A DNA stretch of 59,113 bases, counting the filler. It is 4 parts of 4 records of this genome, joined end to end, with 100 filler letters (N's around TTAATTAATTAA, not from the genome) between each part and the next. Parts side by side here need not be neighbours in the genome. Positions count along the whole stretch, not along the records: positions 13,372 to 43,840 come from DRR378314_1096; 3 more parts are not named here. One strand, written 5' to 3'. Below the pieces are notes generated by a model. The model made no database searches, was not told the origin of the DNA, and worked only from the letters and a program-made list of their open reading frames with translations. Position numbers and translations under genes: made by a program. Positions 13,628-43,626 of the stretch are shown here, piece after piece. The stretch's first letter is position 1. Each line of letters begins with the position of its first letter.

Positions 13628-13656
13628 AATGACTGTTTTCGACCCTGAGCGGCCAT
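13628..13656 (+). repeat. Dispersed short repeat, type A copy 1
   Basis: AATGACTGTTTTCGACCCTGAGCGGCCAT; the 13-bp core CTGTTTTCGACCC is identical to 39825-39837. Confidence 0.7.
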
Positions 13657-13901
13657 CCGCAGGATAGGAGCCCCTGGCTACAATGCGTTTTTTTCTGGTC
13701 AGTTCTGTAACGTGAAGGCTTGTATTGCCAAAGGATAATCTTGAAAATACATATAAAACAATTGCTTATGATCAGATTTTTTATGCTTATGCGCAATTTT
13801 CAGAGACTGGTGATAATGTTAACGCGCATGCGTATGAATAAAACTGTTATGTTTAGGCGCTCTATGGATATTCATGTTCAAGTTTGGAAGGGTTAATAAA
13901 T

Positions 13902-15482
13902 ATGGAGTTTCGTGTTTTATCCAAAAGCAATTGGGTGCCAGAAAACGGAAAGAATACTGCTTATCTTAAGGTCGACCACTGGAATGATTATTCATTTGTA
14001 ACTATGTTCCACCTGTCGCTCCATGATGATGCTGGCATACTTCATGATATTGGTGAAATTAAAATTGGTTTTAAAAGTCAGACGACAGAAATAAGCACCT
14101 ATACAAAGCTGGAGGCTAGCTTTACGAATTTAGGGGAAGAGTTCTTTTCACTAGGTCAAGGCGTTGATTTCTATAAAAACATTGCAGCGTTGCCAGGTAG
14201 TATTCGGAAGCCACTATTGTCGTCGCTGAGAGATATTGTAGTAAATCCAGCCATTATTGAGTCTATCAAAGATGAGGACGTTTTTGGCACTTCTTTACTA
14301 AGAAACGTTAGTCTCTCTGTTGTAAAAGGACAATATGCAAGGTTGGTAGAAGGCTTGGCAGAGTTAACCGATTTTAAATTTAAATTTGTAAGGCTTGAAG
14401 CGCCAAAATTCGGAAGTATTGACCTTAATTTTGAGGTCAAAGTTGACTCGAATCCAAGATCGAATATTCATGCAATTATTGGTCGGAATGGTGTAGGAAA
14501 AACCACCATCCTAAATGGCATGATATCTTCCATCACAGATAGGGAGGGGGCGACTGCAAAATTTATAGATACAGAGAGTTGGCAAGAAACCGAGATTGCT
14601 AATGACTATTTCAGTAGTCTTGTTTCAGTTTCATTCAGTGCTTTTGACCCATTCTCGCCACCTAATGAGCAACCTGATCCTGCGAAAGGTACGTGCTATT
14701 TCTATATTGGCTTGAAAGATTCAAACAACTCTGACCTCCATCGAACAATTAGTGACCTTCAGTATGATTGCATAAAAGCATTGACTAACTGCTTTCAAGA
14801 TTCAAATAAAACCAAGCGCTGGCTAGATGCAATAGAAAAGTTAGGGTCTGATGAAAACTTTTTTTTGATGAGGCTGGAAAAACTAAATTCCATTTATCTG
14901 GAAATGCGTCATAGATATAATGAAGATGAACAGTCTGACTCAACCTCTTTTGTAGAAAGATTTCGAGATGCTGTAGCTCCCACACTATCCAGAATGAGCT
15001 CTGGTCATGCAATCGTACTCCTGACAATTACTCGTTTAGTCGCCACTGTTGAAGAAAAGACGCTAGTACTACTTGACGAACCTGAGAGCCATTTGCATCC
15101 GCCTTTATTATCTGCATTCATACGCGCTCTTTCTGATTTGCTTAATGATAGAAACGGACTTTCCATCATCGCAACTCACTCACCTGTAGTCTTACAAGAA
15201 ATACCAAAATCATGTGTTTGGAAGATATACCGAAAAGGCGCAAATGTAACGGCGAGCAGGCCAAACATTGAGACATTCGCTGAGAATGTTGGAGTATTAA
15301 CTAGTGAGGTTTTCAATTTAGAAGTTGAGCGCTCAGGTTTTCACGACATTCTTGCAAATTCAGTTCTATTGGGAAAAGCCTACGAAGAAATTTTAACAGA
15401 GTACGATGACCAAATTGGTTTTGAAGGAAGAGCTATTTTAAAGGTTCTTATCGCTAAGCGTAACAGGGAGTATTATTCATGA
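13902..15482 (+). CDS. ABC-type (AAA_21-like) ATPase, Septu PtuA-like putative anti-phage ATPase
   Basis: Walker A GRNGVGKT, signature MSSGH, Walker B/D-loop LVLLDEPESHLHP, H-loop ATHSP. AT-rich. Overlaps the HNH gene (ATGA). ATG at 13902 is preferred over the TTG at 13884. Confidence 0.85.
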   Translation: MEFRVLSKSNWVPENGKNTAYLKVDHWNDYSFVTMFHLSLHDDAGILHDIGEIKIGFKSQTTEISTYTKLEASFTNLGEEFFSLGQGVDFYKNIAALPGSIRKPLLSSLRDIVVNPAIIESIKDEDVFGTSLLRNVSLSVVKGQYARLVEGLAELTDFKFKFVRLEAPKFGSIDLNFEVKVDSNPRSNIHAIIGRNGVGKTTILNGMISSITDREGATAKFIDTESWQETEIANDYFSSLVSVSFSAFDPFSPPNEQPDPAKGTCYFYIGLKDSNNSDLHRTISDLQYDCIKALTNCFQDSNKTKRWLDAIEKLGSDENFFLMRLEKLNSIYLEMRHRYNEDEQSDSTSFVERFRDAVAPTLSRMSSGHAIVLLTITRLVATVEEKTLVLLDEPESHLHPPLLSAFIRALSDLLNDRNGLSIIATHSPVVLQEIPKSCVWKIYRKGANVTASRPNIETFAENVGVLTSEVFNLEVERSGFHDILANSVLLGKAYEEILTEYDDQIGFEGRAILKVLIAKRNREYYS

Positions 15483-16582
15483 TGCTTCTTGATGAGCCTC
15501 TATATACTTTTGAGCAAACTATCGATGAGTGTATTCTTGGCGTCACAGGGAATGACTCTTTACGTAAAAAGTTGATCGCGAGCAAGGGGGATTTTTCTAA
15601 TGCGGGCATGCAATACAGATGCGCAGCAGGCACAGCTGAACTGTATGCTATACAACCGGTTAGTGTCGGTGGCGACCCTATAGTAATTAATGCTCTTAAA
15701 AAAAGTGAGTTGTTAAAAATTTATGAGCAATATTTTAGGGCTTCTGAAAAGCCGGCTAGAAAAGTATATGATTCAATTTTAAATTCTGCACAAGATAAGT
15801 GTCCGTTTTGTGGGGGAATAGGTACTCCACGCAACTTAGATCACTTTTTACCCAAGGCTCATTACCCACAATTCTCTGTTTTGCCCAGCAATCTGGTACC
15901 TTCCTGCCGAGATTGCAATATGGATGGAAAAGGGAAAAACTTTGCCACTAGTGCTGAAAAACAAATAATTCAACCTTATTCGGATAATCAAAGATTTTTT
16001 ATCGACCAATGGATCTTTGCTTGTTATGTTGCAGTTGATGATGGTGAGCCGGGAGAATTTAAATATTACGTCTCACCTCCTGAGGGGTGGCCCGAGGTCG
16101 ATAAACAGAGAGCTCGGACTCATTTTGAAGGATTTGATTTGGCTAAGCGTTATGCAACGAAAGCCGCTGAGCAACTGGGTACTGTGCTTGGGCAGATTAG
16201 ATCTATGGAGCAGGCGGATCTCGACATCAGCGTTATTAAAAGTGTGCTTCTGCAACCAGCAATAGAAACAGCTCAGTTCTCGAATCATTGGCAAAAGGGC
16301 ATGTATCAAGCTCTGTATAGTCATTATACGATGTTGGAAAATGCAAAACTTAGCACGTCTAAAATATGCCCTGTTTGCGAGGGAGAATGTTTTTTCGTTA
16401 ACTACTTTTGTCCATTGTGTAATGGAAATGGAATCGTTGTAGCGCAACTTGAAATAGATATTTCTGATTACCAATACTTGAAATGTCCTGAATGTGATGG
16501 ACGGGAAAGGTGTCATTTGTGTTCCGGTAAGGGGTTGATAAGCAGAGATAAAGCTCTTGAAATGACTCGGAATAGGCCATAA
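15479..16582 (+). CDS. HNH endonuclease (PtuB-like) with C-terminal CxxC-repeat zinc finger
   Basis: CPFC...LDHFLPK...NLVPSCRDCN HNH motif; C-terminal CPVCEG, CPLCNGNG, CPECDG and CHLCSGKG repeats. Confidence 0.88.
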   Translation: MMLLDEPLYTFEQTIDECILGVTGNDSLRKKLIASKGDFSNAGMQYRCAAGTAELYAIQPVSVGGDPIVINALKKSELLKIYEQYFRASEKPARKVYDSILNSAQDKCPFCGGIGTPRNLDHFLPKAHYPQFSVLPSNLVPSCRDCNMDGKGKNFATSAEKQIIQPYSDNQRFFIDQWIFACYVAVDDGEPGEFKYYVSPPEGWPEVDKQRARTHFEGFDLAKRYATKAAEQLGTVLGQIRSMEQADLDISVIKSVLLQPAIETAQFSNHWQKGMYQALYSHYTMLENAKLSTSKICPVCEGECFFVNYFCPLCNGNGIVVAQLEIDISDYQYLKCPECDGRERCHLCSGKGLISRDKALEMTRNRP

Positions 16583-16654
16583 CAATTGGCTGCACAGCGA
16601 CCCGTTTTCCGCCACTTTGTTGCTCCAAACCGGCGCGTGAGCCGAGCGTTATAT
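16577..16654 (+). mobile_element. Integron attC recombination site
   Basis: R'' CCATAAC (contains the HNH stop codon); L'' GGCT[G]CAC pairs with L' GTGAGCC, leaving an extrahelical base; R' GTTATAT; 78 bp in total. Confidence 0.85.
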
Positions 16655-16666
16655 CAGCACTACCTC

Positions 16667-16696
16667 AAAGACCGCTTCTGGCCGTAAGCAGCCCAT
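16667..16696 (+). repeat. Dispersed short repeat, type B copy 1
   Basis: AAAGACCGCTTCTGGCCGT is 19/19 identical to 22909-22927 and 17/18 identical to 43597-43614. Confidence 0.85.
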
Positions 16697-16763
16697 ATAT
16701 GCTACAAACAGAATTTAGACTTATATGTTTGCTTATAGTTCTAGACTTGCCAGGAGTCCAACC

Positions 16764-18146
16764 CTACCCCAAAAAACGCTCAAGAAACCCCAAAAATCGA
16801 TGATCATTGGCATAGGCAATATGCATACGCATAGACGATGCATCCGGCCCATTAGGGCGTAGTGAAAAGATACTGCCGGGCGCGATGAAAATACCTTCGT
16901 CCGAGGCTATTTTGGCAAGTTGCATTGCGTCGATATTATTCGGCAGGCGCGCCCATAAGTAATAACCTTCACCAGGCCCCTCTATATTCTCAAGTCCCAC
17001 TTCTTTCAATGCAGTAATCGTACTGGCACTGGCCTTGGTAATACGTTCGCGAAGCTGTACCAAGTGACGGCGGTAACGCCCGTGGGCAATCATGTCGTGA
17101 ATCAGGCGCTCGCTGAAGGTGGAGCTGTTAACGACGGTCACCATTTTGATATCGGTAAGTGCATTAACCAGCCCAGGATTGGCCGCCAAGTAACCCGAGC
17201 GAATGCCGGTGGAAAGCGTCTTGGAAAACGTACCGACGTAAATCACGCGACTCAGGTCATCCAGTGCTGCCAAGTGAGCGCTTCCTCGGTGGAGTAGGTC
17301 AGCGAAGGCGTCGTCTTCTACTAGTATCAGGTTGTAGCGTTCTGCGAGTGTCAGTAGCCGATACAGCTGGTTAAGTGAAAGGGTAGAGCCCGTCGGGTTA
17401 TGGGCATTAGGCTGGAGAAAGAAAACATTGGGGCGATATTGAATAATCTTGCGCTCCAGGTCATCTAGGTCCAGCCCATCGTGGCTGCGGGAAACGCCAA
17501 TCAGCTTGGCCTTGGCCAGGCGCAGCTTGCCAAACAGCGGGTAATAGCCGGGCGTTTCTACCAGGACGCGGTCGCCTGGGGCGATTAGGTGGCGAATAAT
17601 AAGATCAAAGGCATGATTGGCGCCGAAGGTCAGCAATACCTGTTCATGAGAAGCGTGAATGGAGCGTCCGGCCAGTACCCTGGCAATCGTTTCACGCAGT
17701 GGGAGATACCCTTGAGGAGCACCGTACTCGATATCATCATTGCCGATAGACGTTAATCGCTTGGCTTGCCGCGCAAGCGCTGCGCCTCCCATCCAGCTGG
17801 CGGGCGCTCGGCCGTCGCCTACCCGTACCTGAAAGTTACCTACCAACTGCTCCCTCAGAAGCGAGACGCTATCGACGGCTTCCTTTAGCTCGTAGGTCTT
17901 TTCCCGCGCTTCAAGCGCGGGTGGCTGCGTAACAAAAAAGCCTGCCCCTTGGCGGGCACGCAACCTGCCCAGCGCAATTAACTGATCATAAGCATCCACA
18001 ATGGTGTTTTTTGACACTCCATGCTGCCGGGCAGCTTCGCGTATAGAAGCGAGCCTAGCCCCTGGGGCAAGGCGGCCTTCGTTGATAGCCTTGAGAATGG
18101 TGTCGGCTACGTGCCTGGATTTCGACATGATCCGTATCTTCCGCAA
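16764..18146 (-). CDS. MocR/GabR-family PLP-dependent GntR regulator
   Basis: N-terminal GntR wHTH (LAPGARLASIREAARQHGVSKNTIVDAY); aminotransferase-like domain with HNPTG, EDD and GTFSKTL (PLP Lys). The real start may be 18128. Confidence 0.93.
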   Translation of the reverse strand: MRKIRIMSKSRHVADTILKAINEGRLAPGARLASIREAARQHGVSKNTIVDAYDQLIALGRLRARQGAGFFVTQPPALEAREKTYELKEAVDSVSLLREQLVGNFQVRVGDGRAPASWMGGAALARQAKRLTSIGNDDIEYGAPQGYLPLRETIARVLAGRSIHASHEQVLLTFGANHAFDLIIRHLIAPGDRVLVETPGYYPLFGKLRLAKAKLIGVSRSHDGLDLDDLERKIIQYRPNVFFLQPNAHNPTGSTLSLNQLYRLLTLAERYNLILVEDDAFADLLHRGSAHLAALDDLSRVIYVGTFSKTLSTGIRSGYLAANPGLVNALTDIKMVTVVNSSTFSERLIHDMIAHGRYRRHLVQLRERITKASASTITALKEVGLENIEGPGEGYYLWARLPNNIDAMQLAKIASDEGIFIAPGSIFSLRPNGPDASSMRMHIAYANDHRFLGFLERFLG

Positions 18147-18171
18147 AACGGGTTAAGCCCGGTGAAATCAG

Positions 18172-18227
18172 TGTACCTGTCTTTTGATGGGTACAGTACT
18201 TCGTACAATCTCGCCAACTGTACCTAT
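18172..18227. promoter_or_regulatory. Probable operator of the MocR regulator (three TGTACC boxes)
   Basis: TGTACC 18172-77, GGTACA 18190-95 and TGTACC 18219-24 lie in the divergent intergenic region; GATGGGTACAG and CTGTACCTATC form an inverted pair. Confidence 0.5.
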
Positions 18228-18302
18228 CAGTACTCAGCAAGTTTACCCATCATGTGCTCCATTAAAAAAGGCACATCCATAATAAATTCAAGGAGACACG
18301 CT

Positions 18303-18536
18303 ATGTCTGAGAAGAAGAATCGGTTTCTCAATGTGTGGGATGACTCGGTGAGTGGGAGAGATCTTCTGCTGTCACTGTGTATTTCGACGCCGTTAACACT
18401 AGGCGGCTATCTGCTTGCTCCAGCGCAGCCTCCGCTTCCTCTTATTCTTGGGTTGAGCGGCGCTATTCTGGGCTTCTTCATCAATGCGCTGCTGTTTCGC
18501 CCTAAGCGGCAGCTGCAAACCGGTGAGGATAAGTAG
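18303..18536 (+). CDS. Small 77-aa membrane protein (2 TM), probable transporter accessory subunit
   Basis: AGGAGA RBS before the ATG at 18303; two hydrophobic segments; ends 2 bp before the permease gene. Confidence 0.8.
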   Translation: MSEKKNRFLNVWDDSVSGRDLLLSLCISTPLTLGGYLLAPAQPPLPLILGLSGAILGFFINALLFRPKRQLQTGEDK

Positions 18537-18538
18537 TC

Positions 18539-19891
18539 ATGGATCCCGTCTTATTACTTCAAATGTTGGCGGCTGCGATCATTGCCGTCATCGTTTATAC
18601 CGCGATCGGTGTTGCACCGGGTACCGATGAAACCGCCGTACTGGCTCCGGTAACGCTGGCGCTGGTGGTCGCGGGCATACCGCTTCCCGTGGTGCTGGCT
18701 TTCTTTATGGCGGCCATTGTTGCCAAGAAGCTGACCGACTCCATTCCCGTTTCGGTAGCCGGTATACCGGGAGGGGTGATGTCGGCACCTATGGTTGAGC
18801 ACGCACTGATCTTGAAGCGTGAAGGTCATGCCACCCTGGCGATTCGTAAAATGGCGTCCGGTTCGGTCATCGGTACGCTGGTGGCGATCCCCATTAGTCT
18901 GTTTCTGGCTTTTCTATTGACACCCCTAGCCGATGTGCTTGGCCAGTATGCCAGCCAGATATTCTTTGGCGGGGCCGTATTTCTTGCTCTGATGAGCAAG
19001 GAGAAAGTCATCAGCCTGATCAGTATTGTGCTACTGGCAGCATTGATTCAGGGCTTGCGGCACCTGTATTGGGGGATGGGCGTCATTCCGGAAGGGCAGA
19101 CTGTATTCATCTCGTTCTTCTTGGGCATCACCATTGGCCCGATGATGTTTAATCTGGCACAGCTCACGGTCAACAGTGAGCGCCATAAAATGGCGGAGTC
19201 TGAGCCTAAGCAGATCCAGATCTACGGTAACGATGAGAAAGGGCAGCTACCCAATCCATTTCGCATTCTGACGCGTCAGGAAAGCGCCTCGGCCGCAGCT
19301 AGCTCTGTCCTGGGTTCGGTCACATTCTTCATGAGCCCGGTCGGCATCACGATCTTTCTGGGTGAAGTAATGTCGAGCTGGGTGAAAGGTACGGTCAATA
19401 AGGCTAGTCGCGCGCTATCTTCAATGGATGCCGTCACCAACGCCTCTTACATCGCGGGCATCTTGATTCCCTTAGCGGCACTAGGCATACCGATGAGCCC
19501 GATGGCGATTGGCCCAGGCAACGCTTTCTTCAACGCACCGCCGGTACTGACGCTCGAGCAGAATGCTCACCACTTGATGAGTTTTTCCGAAATTACCATC
19601 GCCAGCATTTTGGGTGCCGGTGTCGCTTTGCTGATTACCTACCCGATTGCGGTTCGGTACGCACGGCGTATCTGCATCTTTGTGTTCAAGCACATTCCTC
19701 ACGAAGCGTTCCTGGCGATGTTCTTCTCGCTGGTCATGCTGCTTGCCTATATGGATGCCGGAGTAATGGGCATTTTGGGCGTGATGGTGCTGGCACTGAT
19801 GGCAGGTCTACTCAACCGTTGGGGCGTCAACTATGGCGTGCAGTTCATGACGCTTTATGCCGCACCGTGGCTTTTAGGGCTAATCGCTTAA
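18539..19891 (+). CDS. Tripartite tricarboxylate transporter TctA-like permease
   Basis: Highly hydrophobic 450 aa with TctA-type IGVAPG and AGIPGG motifs and a second-repeat IPLAALGIP. Confidence 0.75.
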   Translation: MDPVLLLQMLAAAIIAVIVYTAIGVAPGTDETAVLAPVTLALVVAGIPLPVVLAFFMAAIVAKKLTDSIPVSVAGIPGGVMSAPMVEHALILKREGHATLAIRKMASGSVIGTLVAIPISLFLAFLLTPLADVLGQYASQIFFGGAVFLALMSKEKVISLISIVLLAALIQGLRHLYWGMGVIPEGQTVFISFFLGITIGPMMFNLAQLTVNSERHKMAESEPKQIQIYGNDEKGQLPNPFRILTRQESASAAASSVLGSVTFFMSPVGITIFLGEVMSSWVKGTVNKASRALSSMDAVTNASYIAGILIPLAALGIPMSPMAIGPGNAFFNAPPVLTLEQNAHHLMSFSEITIASILGAGVALLITYPIAVRYARRICIFVFKHIPHEAFLAMFFSLVMLLAYMDAGVMGILGVMVLALMAGLLNRWGVNYGVQFMTLYAAPWLLGLIA

Positions 19892-19991
19892 TCCGTTTGG
19901 ATCCATGCCTGACGCATATGCTGACTCTTGGTAAATCGTACACGTCAGGCACATTTACTTATTCAACCTCAATTGATCAGAGGCATTATTC

Positions 19992-21251: not shown

Positions 21252-21260
21252 GGAGACAAC

Positions 21261-22166: not shown

Positions 22167-22321
22167 CGTATTCAACCTGACTTTCGACATATTAGAAGCA
22201 GGTCATCATTTCTGGCTGCCATGCCAAGAAAGTCCGAACGTTGACTATAATGAATGAATATCAGCGGGTTTTGCGCTGCTAATAATCACTGTTCAACGTA
22301 ACAATGCAAAGGGAGAAGCAC

Positions 22322-22561
22322 ATGGCTCGTTATGGCCTGTTGGTTTTGATAGGGATGGCACTGGCGGGATGTTCGACCCTAGGTACTACTGATGGTGCTA
22401 ACCAGGCGCAGCAGGTTGCCGTCAATTACTGTGAGCAGGAAGGCGGCGAGGTGCGATCGCGCCAGGAAGCGGGCAAGACTCGTCAGTATTGCCACCTGTT
22501 GGAAGGACGGGTGGTAGAAGTCAATCTGCTTTATCAGACGGAAGGTTTGCGCGTTCACTAA
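22322..22561 (+). CDS. Small lipoprotein, DUF333 (putative hemolysin)-like
   Basis: Lipobox LAGC; A..YCEQEGG...YCHL.EG pattern. Confidence 0.75.
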   Translation: MARYGLLVLIGMALAGCSTLGTTDGANQAQQVAVNYCEQEGGEVRSRQEAGKTRQYCHLLEGRVVEVNLLYQTEGLRVH

Positions 22562-22823
22562 GCGAGGTGCGGCGTATGCGTTGTCGTACCGGCGCTTGCC
22601 TAGTGTTTTAACTATTCTTGATTCAGTGCGTTGACAACAGTTGTGTTGGAGACGATGGACAGCAACGGTAGCTGGAAGAGGCACTTGCGCGTGAACTCGA
22701 AGCGGCTGGCCACAGTATAGATTGGAACACGGTTATGCGCGCTTGATACGCTCTACGATTGAAGGACCGCTGCAACGGCCTCGAAATGCACTTTGTCAGG
22801 TTCCTTTCTGACAACCTTTAAAT

Positions 22824-22886
22824 CGCGTGTACCGGGACTGGTTTTGCGCTGCCACTACAAACCAGCCCGTAACGCGGGCGTTATAA
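22824..22886 (+). mobile_element. Degenerate attC site (R'' eroded)
   Basis: CGCGT[G]TAC/GTAACGCG and CGGG[A]CTGGTTT/AAACCAGCCCG arms, each with an extrahelical base, followed by R' GTTATAA. No intact RYYYAAC at the expected position. Confidence 0.7.
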
Positions 22887-22895: not shown

Positions 22896-22927
22896 TCAGT
22901 GATACCTAAAAGACCGCTTCTGGCCGT
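22896..22927 (+). repeat. Dispersed short repeat, type B copy 2 with shared flank
   Basis: ATCAGTGATACCTAAAAGACCGCTTCTGGCCGT versus ATCAGCACTACCTCAAAGACCGCTTCTGGCCGT at 16653-16685 (4 mismatches). Confidence 0.85.
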
Positions 22928-23075
22928 TAACAACGGCTTGGCCTAAACCGTCGTTTGACGAATTTATGGGATAGCGCTGAAAATGCGACGAGACTTGAAG
23001 ATGGCTCTTGTCAGTTAACCAAAAACCTATCAACGCGGTTAACGGCAGAGCGGGGCAATGCTAGCCAGACACAAC

Positions 23076-28446: not shown

Positions 28447-28506
28447 GGTCTAGATATCGAAGGTCTATGTATCAAAGGTCTATGTATCAAAGGTCTATGT
28501 AGCAAA
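28447..28506. repeat. Tandem repeat, 4 x 15 bp (GGTCTATGTATCAAA)
   Basis: Units start at 28447, 28462, 28477 and 28492; the middle two are identical. Confidence 0.9.
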
Positions 28507-30400: not shown

Positions 30401-32227
30401 TTAAGCAACCTGAACAACGCGGAACATGCCGGCATCCATGTGATAAAGCAGATGGCAATGGAAGGCCCAACTGCCTTCGGCATCTGCCGTGATCAGCGCT
30501 GAAACCCGCTCGCCGGGCTTAACGTTCAGGGTGTGCTTGCGCGGAATCAGCTCTCCCTGGCCATTTTCCAGCTCCATCCACATGCCATGCAGGTGAATGG
30601 GGTGTTCCATCATGGTGTCGTTGATCAGGATTAGGCGTAAGCGCTCGTCCTTCTCGAAATGGATCGGCCCGGTCACCTCGCTGAATTTCTTGCCGTCGAA
30701 CGACCACATGTAGCGTTCCATGTTGCCGGTAAGGTGCAGTTCAAGTTCACGTCCGGGCTCGCGGCGGTCGGGCCATGGAGTAAAGGCCTTTAAGTCTCGG
30801 TAAACCAGTACACGGCGCTCGTTGGGATCAATGCCTATGCCCACTTGACCATAGCGCGAGCCCGGCTGGGCTTCGCCAGGCGCCAGCATGCCGCTTGCGA
30901 GTGTGTTGTGCTGCTCTCCGGTCATGCCAGCGGGGTGATCCATGCCACTCATACCCGACATAGCTGAATGACCCATATCGTCCATGTTGGAATGATCCAT
31001 ATCGTCCATGTTGGACATGCCCGAGTGATCCATTCCCTGCATGTTTGACATAGCTGAATGATCCATACCCCCCATGCTGTGGGCACCCATGGCTTCCATG
31101 CCACGGTCAGCAATTTGGCGACGGTCAGGAATCTCCGCCTGCATGCCTTCACGCGGGGCTAGGGTGGCACGAGCGTAGCCGCTGCGATCCATGGATTCGG
31201 CAAAGATGGTGTAGGCTTGATCGTCTTCGGGTGACACCAAGACGTCGTAGGTTTCGGCAACACCGATACGGAACTCATCGACAGGAACGGGCTGTACCGG
31301 CTGGCCGTCAGCGGCCACTACGGTCATTTTGAGTCCAGGGATGCGTACATCGAAGTAGGACATCGCCGAGCCGTTGATCACTCGTAGCCGAACACGCTCA
31401 CCCGGCTTGAACAGAGCGTTCCAGTTCTCCTGAGGGGAGTGACCGTTGAGCAGGTAGGTGTAAGTACTGCCGGTAACGTCGGCAATATCCCGTGAGCTCA
31501 TACGCATTTTGGCCCACATGCTGCGCATTTCGACGGTGGGGGTTAAACCATTTTGCCGCACATCGGCAAAGAAATCGGCAATTGTGCGTTCCTGGAAGTT
31601 GTAATAACCCTCCATGGTTTTAAGGTTGCGAAATACCGACATGGGATCTTCAAACGTCCAGTCCGTCAGCAAAAGCACGTGTTCGCGGTCATAGCGAAAG
31701 GGTTCGCGCTCGGCGGCGTCGATAATTAGCGGCCCCACGTGGCCTAGCTGTTCCTGCATGCCGGAGTGGCTGTGGTACCAGTAGGTGCCATTCTGGCGCA
31801 CAGGGAAGCGGTAGGTGAAGGTTTCACCAGGCGCGATGCCGGCAAAGCTGACCCCTGGAACCCCATCCATTTCTGGTGGCAGGATCAAGCCGTGCCAGTG
31901 GATTGAGGTAGATTCATCAAGCAGATTAGTGACGCGCAGTACTGCGTCCTGGCCTTCCTTCAGGCGAATCAACGGGCCGGGGCTGGTACCGTTGATGCTA
32001 AAAGCGCTGGCCTCCTGGCCATCAATCGAAATGGATTCACGTCGGATGGCCAACGATACCTCCGGACCCTCTTCAACGCCTTTGGCATAGACATTTGTAC
32101 GCCCCCAGGGGTTGGCCCAGGCGGGGCTTAAGCCCATTGCTGCAGCGGAACCTAACCCTAGCGCCGCGCCACCTTTCAACATCTGACGACGTGAAAGTGG
32201 CTGGGCCATGATGTTCGAACGCGTCAT
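30401..32227 (-). CDS. pcoA: Periplasmic multicopper oxidase CopA/PcoA
   Basis: Tat motif SRRQMLKG; HWHG, WYHSH, HPIHLHG and HCHLLYHM copper ligands; MDHS repeats. Confidence 0.96.
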   Translation of the reverse strand: MTRSNIMAQPLSRRQMLKGGAALGLGSAAAMGLSPAWANPWGRTNVYAKGVEEGPEVSLAIRRESISIDGQEASAFSINGTSPGPLIRLKEGQDAVLRVTNLLDESTSIHWHGLILPPEMDGVPGVSFAGIAPGETFTYRFPVRQNGTYWYHSHSGMQEQLGHVGPLIIDAAEREPFRYDREHVLLLTDWTFEDPMSVFRNLKTMEGYYNFQERTIADFFADVRQNGLTPTVEMRSMWAKMRMSSRDIADVTGSTYTYLLNGHSPQENWNALFKPGERVRLRVINGSAMSYFDVRIPGLKMTVVAADGQPVQPVPVDEFRIGVAETYDVLVSPEDDQAYTIFAESMDRSGYARATLAPREGMQAEIPDRRQIADRGMEAMGAHSMGGMDHSAMSNMQGMDHSGMSNMDDMDHSNMDDMGHSAMSGMSGMDHPAGMTGEQHNTLASGMLAPGEAQPGSRYGQVGIGIDPNERRVLVYRDLKAFTPWPDRREPGRELELHLTGNMERYMWSFDGKKFSEVTGPIHFEKDERLRLILINDTMMEHPIHLHGMWMELENGQGELIPRKHTLNVKPGERVSALITADAEGSWAFHCHLLYHMDAGMFRVVQVA

Positions 32228-34823: not shown

Positions 34824-34840
34824 CTTTATATAGCGCCAAC

Positions 34841-35586: not shown

Positions 35587-35850
35587 TTAAGTGAGAAAAG
35601 CGCCTGTTGGTTGCGGCGTTCTTTCGCTCATTCTGAAGCTCTTCCATTATAAAGCTTCTATAGATTTCGCTTATGGCAACGGTGCCACTGTGAGGGGGCA
35701 GTCTCAGGTTCAGCCAAAGAAGTTTTATGTGATTCATGATGTGGCCTAGTGCTAAAAACTTATCACCTAAGCGCTGTTAGTTGTTCATAATGTAGAAAAT
35801 TTTCCTTAGGGAATTGTGTTGCAACGTATGCATCCGGCCAAGTCCTAAAT

Positions 35851-36366: not shown

Positions 36367-36441
36367 GTAACCGCTCAATAATATTTCGGACGCAAACTTT
36401 GCGCCCGAAACAGGCTCGTTACTAAGCAGCTTCGTGAGTTC

Positions 36442-37656
36442 CTAGCTCACTACGGCGGCGCTATCGCCAACCTGCTGCTTAACTTTCTCTACGATATACG
36501 CCCCAATGGGAATAGCAGACGTCGCCGCAGGCGAGGGTGCGTTACACACGTTGACAGTACGCGGCGTGTTGACGAACAGGAAGTCATCGACCAGCTTGCC
36601 ATCGTTGGACACCGCTTGGGCGCGCACGCCAGCCGGGTAAGGCTCAAGATCAGCCAGCGTTAAGCTTGGGCAGTACTTACGCACTTGCTGTAGGTAGCCT
36701 TTTTTATAGATTGAGTTCTTAAACTCGGAAAGCCCTGGACGCAAGTTGTCTTTCAGCACCTGACGGATACCACGGTGGCGCAGCATGGCGAGCGTGTCGG
36801 AAAACGAGATATCGGTCTTTCGATAGCCTTCACGTTTCCAGGCCAGCACCGCATTGGGGCCGACCGTTACGCTGCCGTCAATCATGCGTGTCAGGTGAAC
36901 GCCAAGAAACGGCATCGAAGGGTCTGGAATCGGGTAGATTAGGTGATTAACGATTTGATTGTGCTGCGCGGGAAGGCGGAAGTACTCGCCGCGGAACGGG
37001 CAGATGGTGAAGTCTGGCTCGATACCCAGCATGCGTACCACGCGGTCTGCCATCAGGCCAGAGCAGGACACCATATAGCGGGTAGAGAAATCACCCTGGC
37101 TGGTGGATACCACTACCTCATTGGTTCGCTCACTTAAGCCGGTCACTGACGTGGTGTAGCGGATCTCACCGCCAGCGGCTTCGAAGTCGCGGCCCATAGC
37201 GGCAGCCACTTCAGCATAATTGACGATACCGCTGGAGGGGACAAAGATACCGCCGACGCCGGTGATGTTAGGCTCACGTTCGTGCAGTTCCTCCGCCGTC
37301 AGCCAATACCGCTCCAAGCCATTAGCCTCCGTGCGCTCCCACAGTGCTTTCATACGCTGGAGTTCTAGGTCATTCGTGGCAACCAGCAGCTTGCCGCATT
37401 CGTCGTAGGCAATGCTATGCTCGTCACAAAACGCTTTGGTGGCGAGGTTTCCCTCTAAACAAAAACGCGCCTTTAAGCTGCCGGGCGTGTAGTAAACCCC
37501 CGCATGAATCACGCCACTGTTGTGGCCTGTTTGATGGCGGGCAGGGCCATCCTCTTTCTCTACCAGCAGCATCTTCTTGTCAGGATAGGCGCGGATCAGC
37601 TGCATGGCAGTCGACAGCCCAAGAATGCCGCCCCCGATAATAATGTAGTCGTACAT
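36442..37656 (-). CDS. lhgO: L-2-hydroxyglutarate oxidase/dehydrogenase
   Basis: IIGGGILG FAD motif, HQTGHNSGVIHAG, PFLGVH, AGVRAQA, NAPSPAATS. Confidence 0.96.
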   Translation of the reverse strand: MYDYIIIGGGILGLSTAMQLIRAYPDKKMLLVEKEDGPARHQTGHNSGVIHAGVYYTPGSLKARFCLEGNLATKAFCDEHSIAYDECGKLLVATNDLELQRMKALWERTEANGLERYWLTAEELHEREPNITGVGGIFVPSSGIVNYAEVAAAMGRDFEAAGGEIRYTTSVTGLSERTNEVVVSTSQGDFSTRYMVSCSGLMADRVVRMLGIEPDFTICPFRGEYFRLPAQHNQIVNHLIYPIPDPSMPFLGVHLTRMIDGSVTVGPNAVLAWKREGYRKTDISFSDTLAMLRHRGIRQVLKDNLRPGLSEFKNSIYKKGYLQQVRKYCPSLTLADLEPYPAGVRAQAVSNDGKLVDDFLFVNTPRTVNVCNAPSPAATSAIPIGAYIVEKVKQQVGDSAAVVS

Positions 37657-37720
37657 AGGCGTCTCGGTAGCCAAGGGAAAATGGCCACCGTCATGGCGGT
37701 GGCCAGCTTATTCTAAATGA

Positions 37721-38683
37721 TTATACCTGACGCGGCTGACGTAGTGTTTTGGCATGGGTGAAATAGCCACGCTGACGCATCAACTCACGACGCAGGTCAG
37801 GGTGCGGGGTGAAGCGATCGCGACCATGCAGCCAGAAGTGATTGTTAATCAGCAGGAAGCTGCCAGTAGCGACCGGAACCGATAGCTGATGTTGGCTACC
37901 TTCCAGCGAATCAGAAAGATTGGCTAGCCAGTTGCCTTCTTCAAAGTTCTTCGGCTGAACGAACTGGTCAATGTAGGCCATGATCGGGCGACCCTCGGTA
38001 TCCACATCGAACACGGGGTGGTAGATGTCGCGATCAACATTCTTGCTGGGCGGCGCGGTCCAGCGCATGTCACGACGCGCCAGTGGGTGAGAGTAGAAAC
38101 TGTCTAACCCTTCCCAGTCATCGAGGTGCAACAGTAACGAGTTGCCGCCTTGCATGTTCTGTTCGTCAACTTTCATCATCAGCACGTAATCGGTGTCCTG
38201 CTCCACGAACGTGCCGTCGTTATGCAGCTCCATCACGCGGTGCGGCTGACGTAGGTAGCTGTCTGAGTTATCGACGTTCTTCACCACAAACCGCGCATAG
38301 TACTGGCCGCTCATGGCATCGTAATTAGAGCGTCCCATTAGGTGAGATACTGCCGTGGCGAATATCACCATGTCGTCGGCCTGCTCAACCTGATCCAGCC
38401 CTTCTGGCGTCACCAGAAACGCTCCCGTATCCCGATCCACCATGGTATCGATCAACACCGGCTGCAAGGTGTTATTACACAGGTCATCAAGAATCTTGGC
38501 CACTCGAAAACGCAGGAAAGACTTATATTCCAGTGCCTGAACCGGCCATTCCGACACGGCGTCAAGAAACGCTTTCACTGTTTCCTTAGGGAAGCTCAGT
38601 TGCAGTAAGCGGTCCGACTGCGGTGAGCGGCCAACGGTGAAACCATGATGCTGCTGTGCGGGGATAGTGGCTGGAGCGTTCAT
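37721..38683 (-). CDS. csiD: Glutarate 2-hydroxylase CsiD/GlaH
   Basis: [42 protein letters not shown]; adjacent to lhgO. Confidence 0.96.
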
Positions 38684-38934
38684 TGGACGCCTCTCTTTAG
38701 CAAAAGGGTGAAAAAGAACCGACTGAATAAATAACCTACGCTTAAAAAATATCTACATTTTTATATTTCGTCAACGTTTTATGTTTATTTAGTTAAAAAG
38801 GCGGTGCGAGCTCGACCACCAGGGGAGCTCACATCGTCAAAATATGGGGATATCAGAGGGCGTTGCTAATGGGGGACTCCAGCCTACCGCGGCTTATGCT
38901 AACTTAGTAATTATCACGTCTAAGGTGCTGTCCC

Positions 38935-39561
38935 ATGTCTATCGAAATTTGGTTTGCCTTTGCGCTTGCATCCGTGGCCTTGCTCGCTATTCCTGGGCCG
39001 ACGATTTTGACGGTTGTCAGCTACTCCATCGCCCAAGGCCGACGCGCTAATATTCCGCTTGTCGCTGCGGTTGCTCTAGGCGATTCCACGGCGCTGATTT
39101 TTTCGCTACTTGGCTTGGGTGCTGTTTTGGCCGCTTCGGCGTTTTGGTTCACCGTTATCAAATGGATTGGCGGTTTATACCTGCTCTATATGGGTATAAA
39201 GCTGTTGCGAGCCGGGATATCGTCGGTTCAGCCGGTAACACCCGCCGTATCAGGGTCGCGCTGGAAGCTGTTCACCAATACCTATTTGGTAACGGCACTG
39301 AACCCCAAGGGCATCATCTTCTTCGTCGCCTTTTTGCCGCAATTTGTTAGCCCGGGCGCTAATGCGGGGCAGCAATTGTGGATTTTGGCAGTCACCTTTG
39401 TGGCGTTAGCGACACTCAATGCCACGCTTTACGCGGTGTTTGCCTCATCCGTGCGCAAAATGCTTGCCTCACGCCGCGCTCAGCGCCGTTTCAATATTGT
39501 GGGCGGAACGCTACTTTCTTCGGCGGGTGTTTGGGCACTGCTGGCCAAACGACCTGCATAA
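38935..39561 (+). CDS. LysE/RhtB family exporter
   Basis: IPGP, KWIGGLYLLYMG, ALNPKGIIFFVAFLPQF. Confidence 0.93.
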   Translation: MSIEIWFAFALASVALLAIPGPTILTVVSYSIAQGRRANIPLVAAVALGDSTALIFSLLGLGAVLAASAFWFTVIKWIGGLYLLYMGIKLLRAGISSVQPVTPAVSGSRWKLFTNTYLVTALNPKGIIFFVAFLPQFVSPGANAGQQLWILAVTFVALATLNATLYAVFASSVRKMLASRRAQRRFNIVGGTLLSSAGVWALLAKRPA

Positions 39562-39820
39562 TAAGCGGCCTGCGAAATAGGCGGTTGGTGATTTTAGACT
39601 GTCAGGAAGCCGACGAATTAACCATGATCAGGAAGGCCGGTATTCACAATAAGTGGCGGCATCACGCGCCTGTCCATAGTGAAACCAGAGCTAGACGACT
39701 AATTTCTAATGACGGCAGCAATCATTATCTGCTAGTTTTTAGGCTAATTATATTTTGACAGTTGCAGGTTGCTGAATAAACGTAAGCGGAGTCGGTTACT
39801 GCGATCAGACACCTTGCTAG

Positions 39821-39848
39821 AAGTCTGTTTTCGACCCATGGCTGACTT
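39821..39848 (+). repeat. Dispersed short repeat, type A copy 2
   Basis: AAGTCTGTTTTCGACCCATGGCTGACTT; terminal AAGTC/GACTT dyad; core identical to 13633-13645. Confidence 0.7.
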
Positions 39849-40035
39849 CAGGCACATAGGGGAGGCTCTATGTAGATTAGGAATTAATGTAATTTACTCA
39901 AACCAATCCGTTCCGGCACGGTTATGCCCCAAAACGTTTTAGTCTTTTTGCAACTATCAATTCGAAAACCTTTTATCTGACCTAATTTTCTTTATCCAAC
40001 CAGGTGATTAGGGTCTGTCTCGTTAGGGGCATGAA

Positions 40036-41778
40036 ATGTCATTAGAAGATACAAAAGCTCGGTTACTAGCGGCAAGTGAAACGGCAGAAGAGCTGCTTGC
40101 TCAGGTTAATAATCTGTATGTCGAGGGAAAACAGTTTGAAGAGAATGTCTTGACAGATGCGCTGTCTCAGCTGCACAACGCAGGAGAGATTGATCTCGTC
40201 GAGATAGTAAGAGGAGTTGATAAAAGCTCCGGCGGACACGATTTTTTCACAGTTTTGCATGTCTTTGAAAGCGCGCTACCTTCATTAGATGCAAGTGTTG
40301 AAGATGTCCTGCATTGCCTGCTTCACCTCACGCAGCAGGCTGGCAGAGATTTGGCTATTAGTGGAATATATGGGGCCTTTGAACGTTTCTGTCGCGTGGA
40401 AGCACAGCGTTCCAGAGATAGCATTGGATTTATCCTTTCACAAAGTGAGCTAAGTACATATGCCCCTTTTCTCTCCAGCTCAATCCTCGCATACGACTCA
40501 GATCGTGTAACCGATGCTATCCAAACGACAGAAAGTCTAATTGCTAACAGAAATGAGATTATCAGAAGCCAAGCATACTTTGCTTTGGGGAGGCTTGATG
40601 TAGATTACGCTCACGCTAATGTCGTTTGGCAACTAATTAGTGGCAGTGCCAGTGGCGAACATGAAAGTGGCTGTTGTGCTTCGATACTGCGGGCGACAAT
40701 TAAATTTGGAGAAGCATTCCCATCTTATTGGACGCAGATTGAAGAGTTTTTGCTTACGTTTGTTGAGGGAGCGTCTCCAGAGGTTCTCTATGAGATATCA
40801 AATGTTATCGCCTTTCAGAGAGTTGATTTACCAGAGTGTGTTCTAGAGATTCTGGTAAAGCAGTTAGAAAATGCTTCCCCTGAGCACAAAGGCATCATAG
40901 ATAATATCGATCATTTATTGGTCAATCTAGTTAAAAAGGGATCCTCTTCACTTGCTCTAAAGTTATTGGAATCGATTTTGACTCTAGGCGTGAAGTTCCC
41001 CCAACTGGATTACTTTTCCAGAGAACTACTAAGCAAGCACCGCGAGCTACTTAATCATATTGTCACAAAGTGGTTTTTGTCCGGTGATTCCACACTTTGC
41101 CATGGTGTTTCAGATCTACTTCATGACGTTACGGGAAAAGATATCGAGCTAGAAGCAGATATGGCATTGCTAGGTGATGACGTAAAGCAAGTGTTTGTTA
41201 GCCACAAGGCTGTCGGTTGGCTGTTCACGCAGCCTATAGCAGCGGCAAGCTTTATTCTATCAATTTACGAAACTAGTTCGAGAACTACGCGTAGAGATCT
41301 TGATCAGATTTTGTATGACCCCTTGCTTTTAAGTTATCCGGGGGAGCTTAAGCGATTCTTCCAATCGTGCATTGATAAAGGCTTTCAAGCAGACCCATGT
41401 GAGCGGTTGCTTGATAAGCTTCAGGCTTATCATGCTGATATTGAGAAAGTATCTGGGTTAAAAGAGTTGATGGCACCCAGAGAAAATATAAGCGTTTATT
41501 GGAAAGAATTCAACAAGAGTATGCAGGCAGTCTACGAAGATGTATCAAGAGGATCGATTATTGATCTGATAGCAACAAAGCAGACGCTATTGTATGGTGA
41601 TAGCTCAATTTATTACGTACACCAGGGAGATGGAGAGCAAATGCGAAAAGAGATGCAAATGCAGTCTTTTTCCCATTCGACTGAAATGCCAAGGTTAAAC
41701 ATCTTAGACCCAGAGTCACTAGATTACATTTTACGAGTTTACCGTTGTGAGAGAATAAAAAATGAAGTTAATTCTTAA
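40036..41778 (+). CDS. Hypothetical alpha-helical (HEAT/adaptin-like) protein; first gene of a putative defence pair (OloA-like candidate)
   Basis: 580 aa, Leu-rich amphipathic helices (e.g. EIIRSQAYFALGRL); AT-rich; overlaps the next gene by 17 bp. Confidence 0.6.
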   Translation: MSLEDTKARLLAASETAEELLAQVNNLYVEGKQFEENVLTDALSQLHNAGEIDLVEIVRGVDKSSGGHDFFTVLHVFESALPSLDASVEDVLHCLLHLTQQAGRDLAISGIYGAFERFCRVEAQRSRDSIGFILSQSELSTYAPFLSSSILAYDSDRVTDAIQTTESLIANRNEIIRSQAYFALGRLDVDYAHANVVWQLISGSASGEHESGCCASILRATIKFGEAFPSYWTQIEEFLLTFVEGASPEVLYEISNVIAFQRVDLPECVLEILVKQLENASPEHKGIIDNIDHLLVNLVKKGSSSLALKLLESILTLGVKFPQLDYFSRELLSKHRELLNHIVTKWFLSGDSTLCHGVSDLLHDVTGKDIELEADMALLGDDVKQVFVSHKAVGWLFTQPIAAASFILSIYETSSRTTRRDLDQILYDPLLLSYPGELKRFFQSCIDKGFQADPCERLLDKLQAYHADIEKVSGLKELMAPRENISVYWKEFNKSMQAVYEDVSRGSIIDLIATKQTLLYGDSSIYYVHQGDGEQMRKEMQMQSFSHSTEMPRLNILDPESLDYILRVYRCERIKNEVNS

Positions 41779-43468
41779 GCAATACTTAGCCTCCCTCAAG
41801 GAGCGCAAGGAATTGGATGCTGTATTACCCGACCTATTGAGCAGTATGGGAATGAATGTGTTTATTTCACCGACTCGTGGGATTAAAGAATATGGTGTCG
41901 ATATAGCAGCGGTAGGTCAATTACAAGATGATGAGGAAGAGTCGGTTTATCTATTTTCTGTAAAATCTGGAAACCTGACCCGCGAAACTTGGAGTGGGCA
42001 ATCTAGCCAGTCATTGCTTCCCTCGTTACAAGAAATTCTATATGGGTTTATCCACAGTCGAATACCTCCTCAATACAGCGGTAAACCAATTGTAATCTGT
42101 TTATGTTTTGGAGGGGATATAAATTCCGGAATTCGCCAAGAAGTCACAGGGTTTGAAAATTTTAACTCCCATGATAATTTAAGATTTGAAGAGTGGAATG
42201 GCGATAAACTCTCAGAGTTTATACAGCAGTACTTATTGAAAGAAGAGTTGCTGCCTAGCTCCAGTCAGGCTTTTTTAAGAAAGTCCTTGGCTTTACTTGA
42301 AGAACCCGAGAGTTCAAGAAAACATTTCTCACTGTTGATTGATGAAGTTTTGTCAAATGCCACTGATGCCGATTCTGTTGCATCGTCCATAACTCGGATT
42401 AACGTTTGTTTATGGGTTTTGTTTTCCTGGTGTCGTGACTGTGGCAATTTGGAAGCTGTATACCTTTCATCTGAGCGAGCACTACTCTTAGCTTGGAACA
42501 AGGTTAAAGGCTACTACACAGGAAGGAACAAAGCGTCCAAAGCTTTCGATAATATTTTAGATACATATCAGCAAATTACTGATTGTTATTTAGACCAATG
42601 TTTAATTCCGTATGTTGAACTGAAATATGCGCTCTCTCATGCGGTTTATTCCCCGTGTTCAATCGATGTAAATATAAAACTGTTTGATGTGCTAGGGCGT
42701 TTATCGGTTAAAGGGCACTGGATACTAGACTCACTCTCAAAGAGTTATGCCGAAAACCCTCCAGCAGATGGAGAGAGCGAATATCAGGAACAGTTACGTC
42801 TTCGTCTCAGGGAAATAACAAGGTCGATTAACTTTTTGGTTGTTAATAATCCAATATTGCTAACTCCATACAAAGACTCGCAGGCTATAGATCTTGGCCT
42901 GGCTTTAACCTTGCTTTCAAATGATTCAGAACTTGATGAGTTTGTACAGAGTTGGCTGAAGGAGATTGTCAATAGGTGCATGTTCTCTTTTGATAGTAAT
43001 GGTATGTATCCAATCGTTCATAATTCATACGAAAAGCTGCTTGAGCATAAAAACAAAGTCAATGTTGACGGAAGCTATAAAAATAAAGTTACTGAGGCTA
43101 GTGTTTTATACCCATTGCTAGCGGTTTTTAGTTCTTTGTATAAGCTGGATTCAGTAAGCCAAGATTTGGGGAAGTTTGCCAAAGATAAACTGGCACATAG
43201 CACGTTACAATATTGGTATCCAAACCAACATAGTGAGCAGTTTATGTACTCTAACTCAGATGTGCATGGTTCTACGTCAACTAACTTTCCGATGGATGGA
43301 AGCTTAGCGCTAGAGCATATAAAGCAAGAATGTAGCAATGCTGATTCGTTCAAGAGAATGTCAGCCGTTACTAGTGGCAAGTCTCCTTTGGTGCTTACAG
43401 CTTGTCGCTGCTACCGATATCCAGTTCCTTTTCATTATCTTGAGGACTGGCTCACTGCATCTGAGTAA
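41762..43468 (+). CDS. Protein with N-terminal Mrr-like PD-(D/E)xK nuclease domain and helical C-terminus (OloB-like candidate)
   Basis: ELD...DLLSSMG...EYGVDIAAV...YLFSVKSG...EEWNGDKLSEFI follows the Mrr-type restriction-endonuclease pattern. Confidence 0.7.
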   Translation: MKLILKQYLASLKERKELDAVLPDLLSSMGMNVFISPTRGIKEYGVDIAAVGQLQDDEEESVYLFSVKSGNLTRETWSGQSSQSLLPSLQEILYGFIHSRIPPQYSGKPIVICLCFGGDINSGIRQEVTGFENFNSHDNLRFEEWNGDKLSEFIQQYLLKEELLPSSSQAFLRKSLALLEEPESSRKHFSLLIDEVLSNATDADSVASSITRINVCLWVLFSWCRDCGNLEAVYLSSERALLLAWNKVKGYYTGRNKASKAFDNILDTYQQITDCYLDQCLIPYVELKYALSHAVYSPCSIDVNIKLFDVLGRLSVKGHWILDSLSKSYAENPPADGESEYQEQLRLRLREITRSINFLVVNNPILLTPYKDSQAIDLGLALTLLSNDSELDEFVQSWLKEIVNRCMFSFDSNGMYPIVHNSYEKLLEHKNKVNVDGSYKNKVTEASVLYPLLAVFSSLYKLDSVSQDLGKFAKDKLAHSTLQYWYPNQHSEQFMYSNSDVHGSTSTNFPMDGSLALEHIKQECSNADSFKRMSAVTSGKSPLVLTACRCYRYPVPFHYLEDWLTASE

Positions 43469-43514
43469 ATAGGTAAGTCTGATATTTTCAGCCCCTTTAT
43501 TCGATCAAGTACGG

Positions 43515-43584
43515 GTCTAACAATGCACCGCTCTCGTCAAAATACTAGTATGGCTCGCATTTTTCGGTGGGCTCTGCGTCACAT
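43515..43584 (+). mobile_element. Decayed attC-like site
   Basis: R'' GTCTAAC 46 bp after the stop codon; imperfect dyad (CACCG...AAAAT / ATTTT...CGGTG); mutated R' GTCACAT. Confidence 0.5.
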
Positions 43585-43596
43585 AAGGATCGCTTA

Positions 43597-43626
43597 AAAG
43601 ACCGCTCCTGGCCGATTTCAGACCTT
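43597..43626 (+). repeat. Dispersed short repeat, type B copy 3
   Basis: AAAGACCGCTCCTGGCCGATTTCAGACCTT. Confidence 0.8.

Follow-up and report, generated by a model that had tools for sequence, protein, structure and literature searches.

Two spacer variants of a 24-bp site bracket defence cassettes in a Vreelandella-related contig and probably serve a small tyrosine recombinase

Introduction

The locus analyzed here raises the question of whether five copies of a short, directly repeated motif around two defence modules are the recombination sites of a mobile system and, if so, which enzyme acts on them. The locus belongs to a 59,113-base stretch of DNA (the window) in which four contigs are joined by N44-TTAATTAATTAA-N44 linkers, and all five copies lie inside contig 2 (13372–43840; 30,469 bp; 50.9% guanine plus cytosine (GC)). 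A first-pass annotation made from the letters alone had sorted the copies into types A and B and proposed that they are sites of a site-specific system bracketing mobile cargo, a proposal that is supported by the comparisons between genomes undertaken in this study. Our analyses indicate that A and B are probably spacer variants of one 24-bp double-stranded site used by tyrosine recombinases of ~206 amino acids which move cassettes, a reading that we base on comparative sequence evidence. The closest genome compared was that of Vreelandella alkaliphila DSM 16354 (G002, within which the named record of locus L080 falls), which has 95–96% identity with contig 2 over 4 kb, and the host is therefore a Vreelandella/Halomonas relative.

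Anatomy of the sites

Position weight matrices were built from 37 A-type and 187 B-type sites of other genomes only, the window being excluded, and used to scan both strands of contig 2. The scan recovered exactly five sites, all on the plus strand as had been described, with all other matches at noise level. Each of the five (Table 1) scored above the maxima obtained from 50 shuffles, which were 17.9 bits for the A matrix and 16.6 bits for the B matrix. The positions in the first-pass annotation were confirmed by the 13-mer core of type A, which is exact at both 13633 and 39825, and the 18-mer of type B, which is present at 16667, 22909 and 43597, and the A sites lie 251 and 211 nt before the first open reading frames of the two modules, within the ~200–270 bp that had been given. 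No shuffle out of 100 yielded three matches to the B 18-mer. The A pair alone is not significant, as at least three matches with up to two mismatches occurred in 17 of 100 shuffles, and by our estimate 30 kb would contain about seven exact 13-mer pairs by chance.

Full sites, as seen in arrays, are composed of 8-nt inverted arms, G(A/T)CCGCTT and AAGCGG(T/A)C, with an asymmetric 8-nt spacer between them. The arms are common to both types, whereas the spacer, TCGACCCN in A-type and CTGGCCGN in B-type sites with minor variants such as TTGGCCG, differs between A and B at four of seven positions. This anatomy accounts for the weak dyad symmetry and the kinship of A and B that had been noticed at the outset, including the agreement of A1 and B1 at 16 of 24 positions with seven of the eight differences being transitions (letters read by eye). 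Single-strand folds of the window’s sites were no better than those of shuffles (z −1.3 to +1.4), and therefore a double-stranded core site fits better than a folded one.

Three other candidates around the sites were rejected. The matrix scan gave no support to an additional A site at about 22185, ahead of the DUF333 gene. A sigma-54 promoter (TGGC..GC) was dismissed by eye, the GG-to-GC distance being at most 9 and not 10, and so was a small reverse-strand peptide across B, whose reading frames vary between loci.

Synteny breakpoints and natural variants

Comparison with relatives revealed that homology breaks at the sites themselves. In V. alkaliphila, homology to contig 2 is lost at 39844, seven nucleotides beyond the 13-mer of A2, and is picked up again at 43602, within B3, with the A2-to-B3 span measuring 13.1 kb in that genome versus 3.8 kb in the window. 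The LysE flank of this hot spot was found in 34 of 101 genomes of the genus, and both flanks were on one contig in six. In five of the six genomes, homology on the left stops within 39832–39853 and homology on the right begins within 43559–43602. The cargo between the hot-spot junctions is unlike in five Vreelandella genomes (1.2, 2.1, 3.8, 7.6 and 13.1 kb). The sixth genome (G187; locus L173, ~870–2150) has neither an A nor a B site and instead contains two or three small cassettes whose ends resemble attC; it is also the sole relative with an intact IntI gene, located elsewhere in its genome. B1 and B2 are breakpoints too, as their right flanks are kept in V. alkaliphila, with homology from 16653 and 22928, and to the left of their counterparts lies a different cassette or a degenerate site. 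Synteny breakpoints, which had been proposed as a check on the motif, therefore coincided with it at all four testable sites (A2, B1, B2 and B3). An island boundary at 35839 was also considered as site-linked and was rejected, there being no A or B site at that position.

Natural variants bear on which sites may recombine with each other. At the right-hand edge of the hot spot, B occurs twice in two genomes, the copies being separated by 529 bp, and a third genome has a single B whose left side is that of the first B and whose right side is that of the second, with the 529-bp segment absent. Such an arrangement would be expected from B x B recombination. Three genomes have units at the hot spot in the order A-cassette-attC-B-recombinase-A, a layout that would be expected of a circle integrated at A. 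One contig carries the array B-recombinase-A-cargo-B-cargo-B-recombinase-A-cargo-B on a single strand, with two recombinase modules. Members of the Lysobacteraceae and Oxalobacteraceae have six to seven same-strand sites within 2.5–4 kb that do not alternate and are without attC-like hairpins. Array orders outside the window include five B then two A; six B; and A, A, B, B, B, B, A. The circle with an A/B hybrid junction that had initially been anticipated was absent among the natural variants found, which fit A x A and B x B.

An IS1182-family insertion sequence element, with the end AGGCTGTGTGAAAACG, was observed in or right after the spacer of one A site and two B sites. These are at L129 4535–6225 in V. 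alkaliphila, where the A site is split in halves, at L053 after B, and at L180 about 5068 (G191). The element seems to target A/B sites, much as IS1202-family elements target pdif; targeting of pdif sites by an insertion sequence is reported in PMC10132070.

A small tyrosine recombinase linked to the sites

A candidate for the enzyme emerged from 24 annotated loci (78 open reading frames), each 1.5 kb or longer, with the motif between genes and with the end of a plus-strand reading frame no more than 280 nt upstream of it. At four of these loci a small gene of the Phage_integrase family directly follows B. The four recombinases are 55–66% identical and have kept the catalytic R, K, H-x-x-R, H and Y positions. 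Scores with the integron-integrase model TIGR02249 were 26.1 and 30.3 bits versus a cut-off of 265, and on these scores the ~206-residue recombinase is not an integron integrase. Models of tyrosine-type DNA invertases match it weakly (E 1.3e-6 and 5.2e-7), and among solved structures it is closest to the catalytic domains of XerD, XerC-like, XerH and XerA proteins. The structure model is of low confidence (mean predicted local distance difference test score 66), with helices beginning near residue 33, and the protein is predicted to consist of the catalytic domain only, without a core-binding domain. The simple tyrosine recombinases described in PMC8138268 have core-binding as well as catalytic domains.

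Linkage between enzyme and sites was assessed at 20 loci that were chosen by the protein, not the motif, and oriented on the recombinase gene. Downstream of the stop codon, all 20 have a hairpin and, beyond it, B in reverse complement. A, likewise in reverse complement, was found about 100 nt ahead of the recombinase start in 12 of the 20, with one additional partial copy, and is absent from five recombinase loci in two near-identical groups and from one further locus. The B-to-A span across the gene is about 760 nt, and in Halomonadaceae this represents a conserved 0.76-kb module with A before the recombinase promoter and B after the terminator. The hairpin after B2 in the window (Table 1) resembles that between B and the stop codon of the relatives’ recombinase genes, and has the look of a terminator-like remnant. 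The supposition that the recombinase is encoded elsewhere agrees with what was found, namely a candidate in relatives that is flanked by the same sites.

The recombinase has at least 8000 homologues, typically of 206 amino acids, and among the matches listed the identity between Halomonas and Pseudomonas proteins is about 80%. The family is large and conspicuously conserved, spans Gamma- and Betaproteobacteria and is also present on plasmids, including pMOL30 and a P. aeruginosa megaplasmid. In a sample of 201 Halomonadaceae genomes the gene was found in 29, in one to five copies each, several of the copies having internal stops.

Distribution of the sites across genomes

An exact scan for the B 18-mer in one genome per species (185,579 species) identified 118 loci, 33 of them in Halomonadaceae, with other clusters in Hydrogenophaga, Janthinobacterium, Massilia, Pseudomonas and Lysobacteraceae. 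Roughly 140 loci would be expected by chance by estimate, and the clustering by taxon is clearly non-random. Among the 201 Halomonadaceae genomes there were 267 B-like matches (up to two mismatches) versus 119 for a reversed-pattern control. The mean number of B-like sites was 3.0 in the 29 recombinase-positive genomes versus 1.04 in the 172 others (Mann-Whitney p 1e-8); the corresponding means for the control pattern were 0.66 and 0.58. Overall, the mean of 1.3 B-like matches per genome compares with tens to hundreds for repetitive extragenic palindromic (REP) sequences and bacterial interspersed mosaic elements. The motif is thus neither randomly distributed nor an ordinary REP sequence, two possibilities that had been raised when it was first described, since B-like sites are low-copy and enriched where the recombinase gene is present.

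Two exact B 18-mers, 194 bp apart and each after a GTGAACGTT box, were also observed in locus L071 of a Nitrospinales metagenome-assembled genome, and the site family seems to extend beyond Proteobacteria.

attC-like ends and heptamer boxes

The first-pass annotation had every B copy following an attC-like site, at a gap of exactly 12 bp at both defence loci. The gap was verified, measured from GTTATAT (B1) and GTCACAT (B3) to the 18-mer. The more general statement was only partly borne out, well at B1, in part at B2, which has a strong hairpin with an unpaired R box, and not at B3, where there is no hairpin (Table 1). When all 36 Halomonadaceae copies of B were considered, including the three in the window, a heptamer NYTAYAT was found exactly 12 nt before B in 32. 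The fold z was below −2 in 17 of the 36 upstream stretches, and the heptamer pairs distantly in about half of these. Exact R''/R' 5-mer pairing was seen in 4 of 36 versus 3.6 in shuffles, under a distance window that was too strict.

On the other side of the unit, most recombinase loci (L141–L169) have a GTTATRY-like box 42 nt after the A spacer. The A1 box at this distance reads GTTTTTT (region 13640–13690), and A2 is without a box. The box after A mirrors the heptamer 12 nt before B. An IntI gene over the curated cut-off was identified in two of five related genomes, in one case with internal stops, and fragments were present in the others; therefore real integrons exist in the genus.

Discussion

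Our results suggest a route by which cassettes might be gained, exchanged and fixed. In the reading we favour, the small recombinase would bind the arms as a dimer and recombine like sites, and units of the form A-cargo-(attC)-B-recombinase would integrate at a resident A by A x A. Later B x B recombination would delete or swap the DNA between B sites, with the end state being cargo that is fixed between A and B without the recombinase gene. The window would show this end state twice, as A1-Septu-B1 and A2-Olokun-B3, with B2 a solo site, and the recombinase would be supplied in trans by a gene at another place in the genome. The differing spacers would prevent recombination between A and B, such that the cassette would be stabilised and exchange would still be possible. 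The comparisons establish the anatomy of the sites, their linkage to the recombinase, the breakpoints and the B-to-B indel, whereas we infer that this recombinase is the enzyme at work, that it joins like sites and that A and B are mutually incompatible.

Several observations weigh against this reading. There is no recombinase or integrase gene in the 30.5-kb contig 2 nor in the rest of the window, so that action in trans is assumed. The layout of A and B is not universal, as a Pseudomonas plasmid has B-like sites on both sides of the recombinase gene. A B-like match is still found in 89 of the 172 genomes that have no recombinase match; such matches are in part noise, given that the control pattern matches 90 of the 201 genomes. 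The spacer difference fits like-with-like recombination, and the exclusion of A x B is a step that we infer from it. The matrix sites were picked by the spacer plus one arm, and the picture of sites with one strong and one weak arm is partly a matter of ascertainment. The comparison of breakpoints covered four sites, the contig beginning 257 nt before A1 and the left flank of A1 thereby falling outside it. Lastly, the proposed coupling of the motif to attC sites applies to about half of the Halomonadaceae B copies and is weak at B3.

Other explanations of the sites were weighed. Possibly, each integrated cassette has A and B as its attL and attR, with A x B excising a circle that has a hybrid site (B left arm plus A right arm) and leaving a weak hybrid in the chromosome. 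Both window cassettes do occupy A-to-B intervals, the left arm of B is the inverted repeat of the right arm of A, and where sites were selected by one arm the other is only weakly conserved. In addition, some tyrosine recombinases accept unlike overlaps, as does IntDOT, which PMC2817482 contrasts with enzymes that strictly require overlap identity. However, we consider this explanation rather unlikely because the spacers, although they differ between the classes at four of seven positions, do not vary within a class as coupling sequences do, the order of sites in arrays outside the window is not an alternation of A and B, and the natural variants fit B x B and A x A. Furthermore, the predicted chromosomal hybrid was not seen at the hot spot, where one genome is without both sites and another has an A that is 4 nt shorter.

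It is very unlikely that the sites are extended attC or attI-like parts used by IntI, with the small recombinase as a passenger. The breakpoints are in the 24-bp sites, not at the heptamer G/TT (homology starts at 43602, 22928 and 16653), the sites keep constant distances from the small recombinase gene that they flank, two relatives with complete hot-spot units have IntI fragments only, and the Lysobacteraceae and Oxalobacteraceae arrays are without attC-like hairpins, although use by IntI would account for the fixed heptamer before B, the folding of almost half of the upstream stretches, the box after A in most recombinase loci and at A1, and the IntI genes of two relatives. A dif site is 28 bp long, with 11-bp arms and a 6-bp spacer (11-6-11). 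That the sites are dif-like targets of XerC/XerD, in modules like the dif modules of Acinetobacter plasmids, is highly improbable given their 8-8-8 layout, their uniformly direct orientation and the co-occurrence of a dedicated recombinase, even though the closest solved relatives of the recombinase are Xer catalytic domains and short palindromic arms with a spacer bracket accessory modules, as is reported for dif modules. Hardly credible is the explanation by REP-like or terminator hairpins or a transcription-factor operator, with breakpoints arising from homologous recombination between repeats. The sites are intergenic with dyad symmetry and a hairpin follows B2, but they average one to three copies per genome and not tens to hundreds, fold no better than shuffles, keep a constant orientation and match no Rfam family. 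Moreover, they have only 13–18 nt in common, which is too short for efficient homologous exchange, and are linked to a recombinase gene. An att site at the end of a tRNA gene, or a known RNA motif, was likewise rejected, as there was no match to an Rfam family, transfer RNA (tRNA) or transfer-messenger RNA in the window.

Returning to A and B as spacer variants of one recombinase site, the positions of the two boxes suggest that integron cassettes may dock between two fixed points inside the A-to-B unit. The unit could then link two recombination systems by acting as a mobile platform for docking, an extension that we offer as tentative and somewhat doubtful. IntI would insert integron cassettes at the two boxes (42 nt beyond A; 12 nt ahead of B), after which the 206-residue recombinase would transfer the filled unit from genome to genome and exchange it, like with like, at its two heterospecific sites. 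A strict, exact pattern for an empty unit (A, heptamer and B within about 90 nt) had no match among 342 Halomonadaceae genomes. If docking does take place, it would represent natural recombinase-mediated cassette exchange, spreading integron cassettes, including those for defence, into genomes without an integron integrase.

The system has similarities to integrons, in which a tyrosine recombinase is likewise transcribed away from a site that same-strand cassettes follow; arrays of promoter-poor, low-GC cassettes occur in both, with defence systems among the cargo. Defence systems are cargo of chromosomal integrons according to bioRxiv 10.1101/2024.07.02.601686, and here integron-type attC-like ends are found inside the A-to-B units. 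In contrast to integrons, the recombinase here has 206 residues, scores far below the integron-integrase cut-off and is without the core-binding domain; its sites are 24-bp palindromes of double-strand type in place of folded attC sites of 60–130 nt; and there are two spacer classes, with the site after the last cassette abutting the 3' end of the recombinase gene. As in dif modules, accessory modules lie between short recombination sites and are shuffled between replicons, and the sites attract an insertion sequence, here an IS1182-type element that has entered the spacer at three loci. However, the elements here are chromosomal, occur in many orders and have their own recombinase and sites that are 8-8-8 and all direct, whereas dif sites alternate and are served by the host XerC/XerD.

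Cassette exchange with heterospecific spacers by Cre/lox and Flp/FRT is an engineered system. Its likeness to the units here lies in a segment between two sites with the same arms and different asymmetric 8-nt spacers, such that the sites would recombine like with like and the interior would be swappable. The units here differ in being natural and in having arms of 8 nt and not 13, and the incompatibility of A and B is presumed. FimB and FimE are also about 200 amino acids long and essentially a catalytic domain alone, but those enzymes invert a promoter between inverted repeats, whereas direct repeats and insertion, deletion or replacement are seen here. BIM and RIT elements were considered and set aside since, according to PMC3414803, they have partner proteins or recombinase trios, unlike the system here. 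No published description of the recombinase family or its sites was found in a search that left subscription journals and supplements outside its reach, and the recombinase system is apparently widespread and undescribed in print.

If our reading is true, integrons are not the sole general gene-cassette system of bacteria, and a second one, with a much smaller recombinase and 24-bp sites, gives rise to arrays of cassettes and to variable hot spots across Gamma- and Betaproteobacteria and also on plasmids. It would also explain the exchange of Septu and Olokun at fixed chromosomal spots. In practical terms, A, B and the recombinase are sequence marks by which new cargo may be found, and the compact natural pair of heterospecific sites is of possible use in genome engineering. 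In addition, the fixed spacing to attC-like ends makes the suspected traffic of integron cassettes outside integrons directly testable.

Cassettes and other features of the window

The two A-to-B intervals each contain a two-gene defence module (Table 1). PADLOC matches were obtained for both proteins of cassette 1 (PtuA/PDC-M01A, 1.4e-206; PDC-M01B, 8.7e-109) and of cassette 2 (OloA, 7.6e-120; OloB, 2.2e-201), and on the basis of these full-length profile matches the cassettes are classed as Septu-like and Olokun, respectively. Interior GC is 40.3% for A1-B1 and 41.5% for A2-B3, compared with 54% for B1-B2 and B2-A2. The earlier idea that the copies partition the contig into functional blocks consequently stands for the two A-to-B intervals, which are low-GC cassettes, and is loose for B1-B2 and B2-A2, which are DNA of ordinary GC content. 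The small lipoprotein gene upstream of B2 is possibly a small cassette without an A site.

Table 1. Coordinates of the sites, attC-like stretches and cassette genes in contig 2 of the window
Feature	Position	Strand	Details
Site A1	13631..13654	+	24 bp; arms GACTGTTT / GAGCGGCC, spacer TCGACCCT; 30.4 bits
Site B1	16670..16693	+	Arms GACCGCTT / AAGCAGCC, spacer CTGGCCGT; 34.1 bits
Site B2	22912..22935	+	29.3 bits; followed by hairpin at 22927-22960
Site A2	39823..39846	+	Left junction of hot spot, after LysE-family gene; 21.7 bits
Site B3	43600..43623	+	Right junction of hot spot; 36.1 bits
attC-like imperfect hairpin before B1	16580..16654	+	Long; ATAAC/GTTAT base; R box pairs with distant partner; z -2.0
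attC-like hairpin and GCGGGCGTTATAA box before B2	22798..22886	+	z -3.0; 0/200 shuffles fold equally well; R box unpaired
Degenerate attC-like stretch before B3	43515..43584	+	Ends in heptamer GTCACAT; z 0.04, no hairpin
Septu-like pair, cassette 1	13884..16582	+	PtuA-type ATPase 13884-15482, PDC-M01B partner 15479-16582
Olokun, cassette 2	40036..43468	+	OloA 40036-41778, OloB 41762-43468
Small DUF333 lipoprotein gene	22304..22561	+	Upstream of hairpin and B2

Elsewhere, PADLOC matches with E of 1e-10 or better were obtained for 4 of the 24 annotated loci (GajB, PD-T7-1, PDC-S31 and PDC-S49), and the Pfam cargo of those loci includes AbiH, HEPN, PIN, HNH, KAP NTPase and the McrB-like N-terminal domain. 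Defence genes are common among the cargo, and other cargo occurs too. Between A1 and the first Septu gene, a stretch of ~90 nt at 13754–13849 recurs before other V. alkaliphila cassettes with 77–97% identity (C46:7837-7918, C46:8010-8038 and C10:4662-4717) and may be a shared cassette leader or promoter.

The assembly of the window seems mixed. Contig 1 (1–13271) has 63% GC and an open frame of at least 3232 amino acids, and contigs 3 (43941–50769) and 4 (50870–59113) have split pieces of ABC transporters, with MyTH4 and RhoGAP matches, and look eukaryotic. Contig 3 opens with an (ATTGTT)n microsatellite at 43942–43975. The stretch was not contained in any public sequencing run, the best of the 21 listed matching 7% of its sampled words.

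The remaining genes of contig 2 are accessory or metabolic, and include those for a MocR-type regulator, TctA, HMG-CoA reductase and lyase, copper resistance, CsiD, an LhgO-like protein and LysE. Four tandem 15-nt units (GGTCTATGTATCAAA-like) at 28447–28506, between two copper-resistance genes, may be an operator array. In the multicopper oxidase gene, internal repeats of 33–57 nt at 30935–31100 encode a Met/His-rich region.

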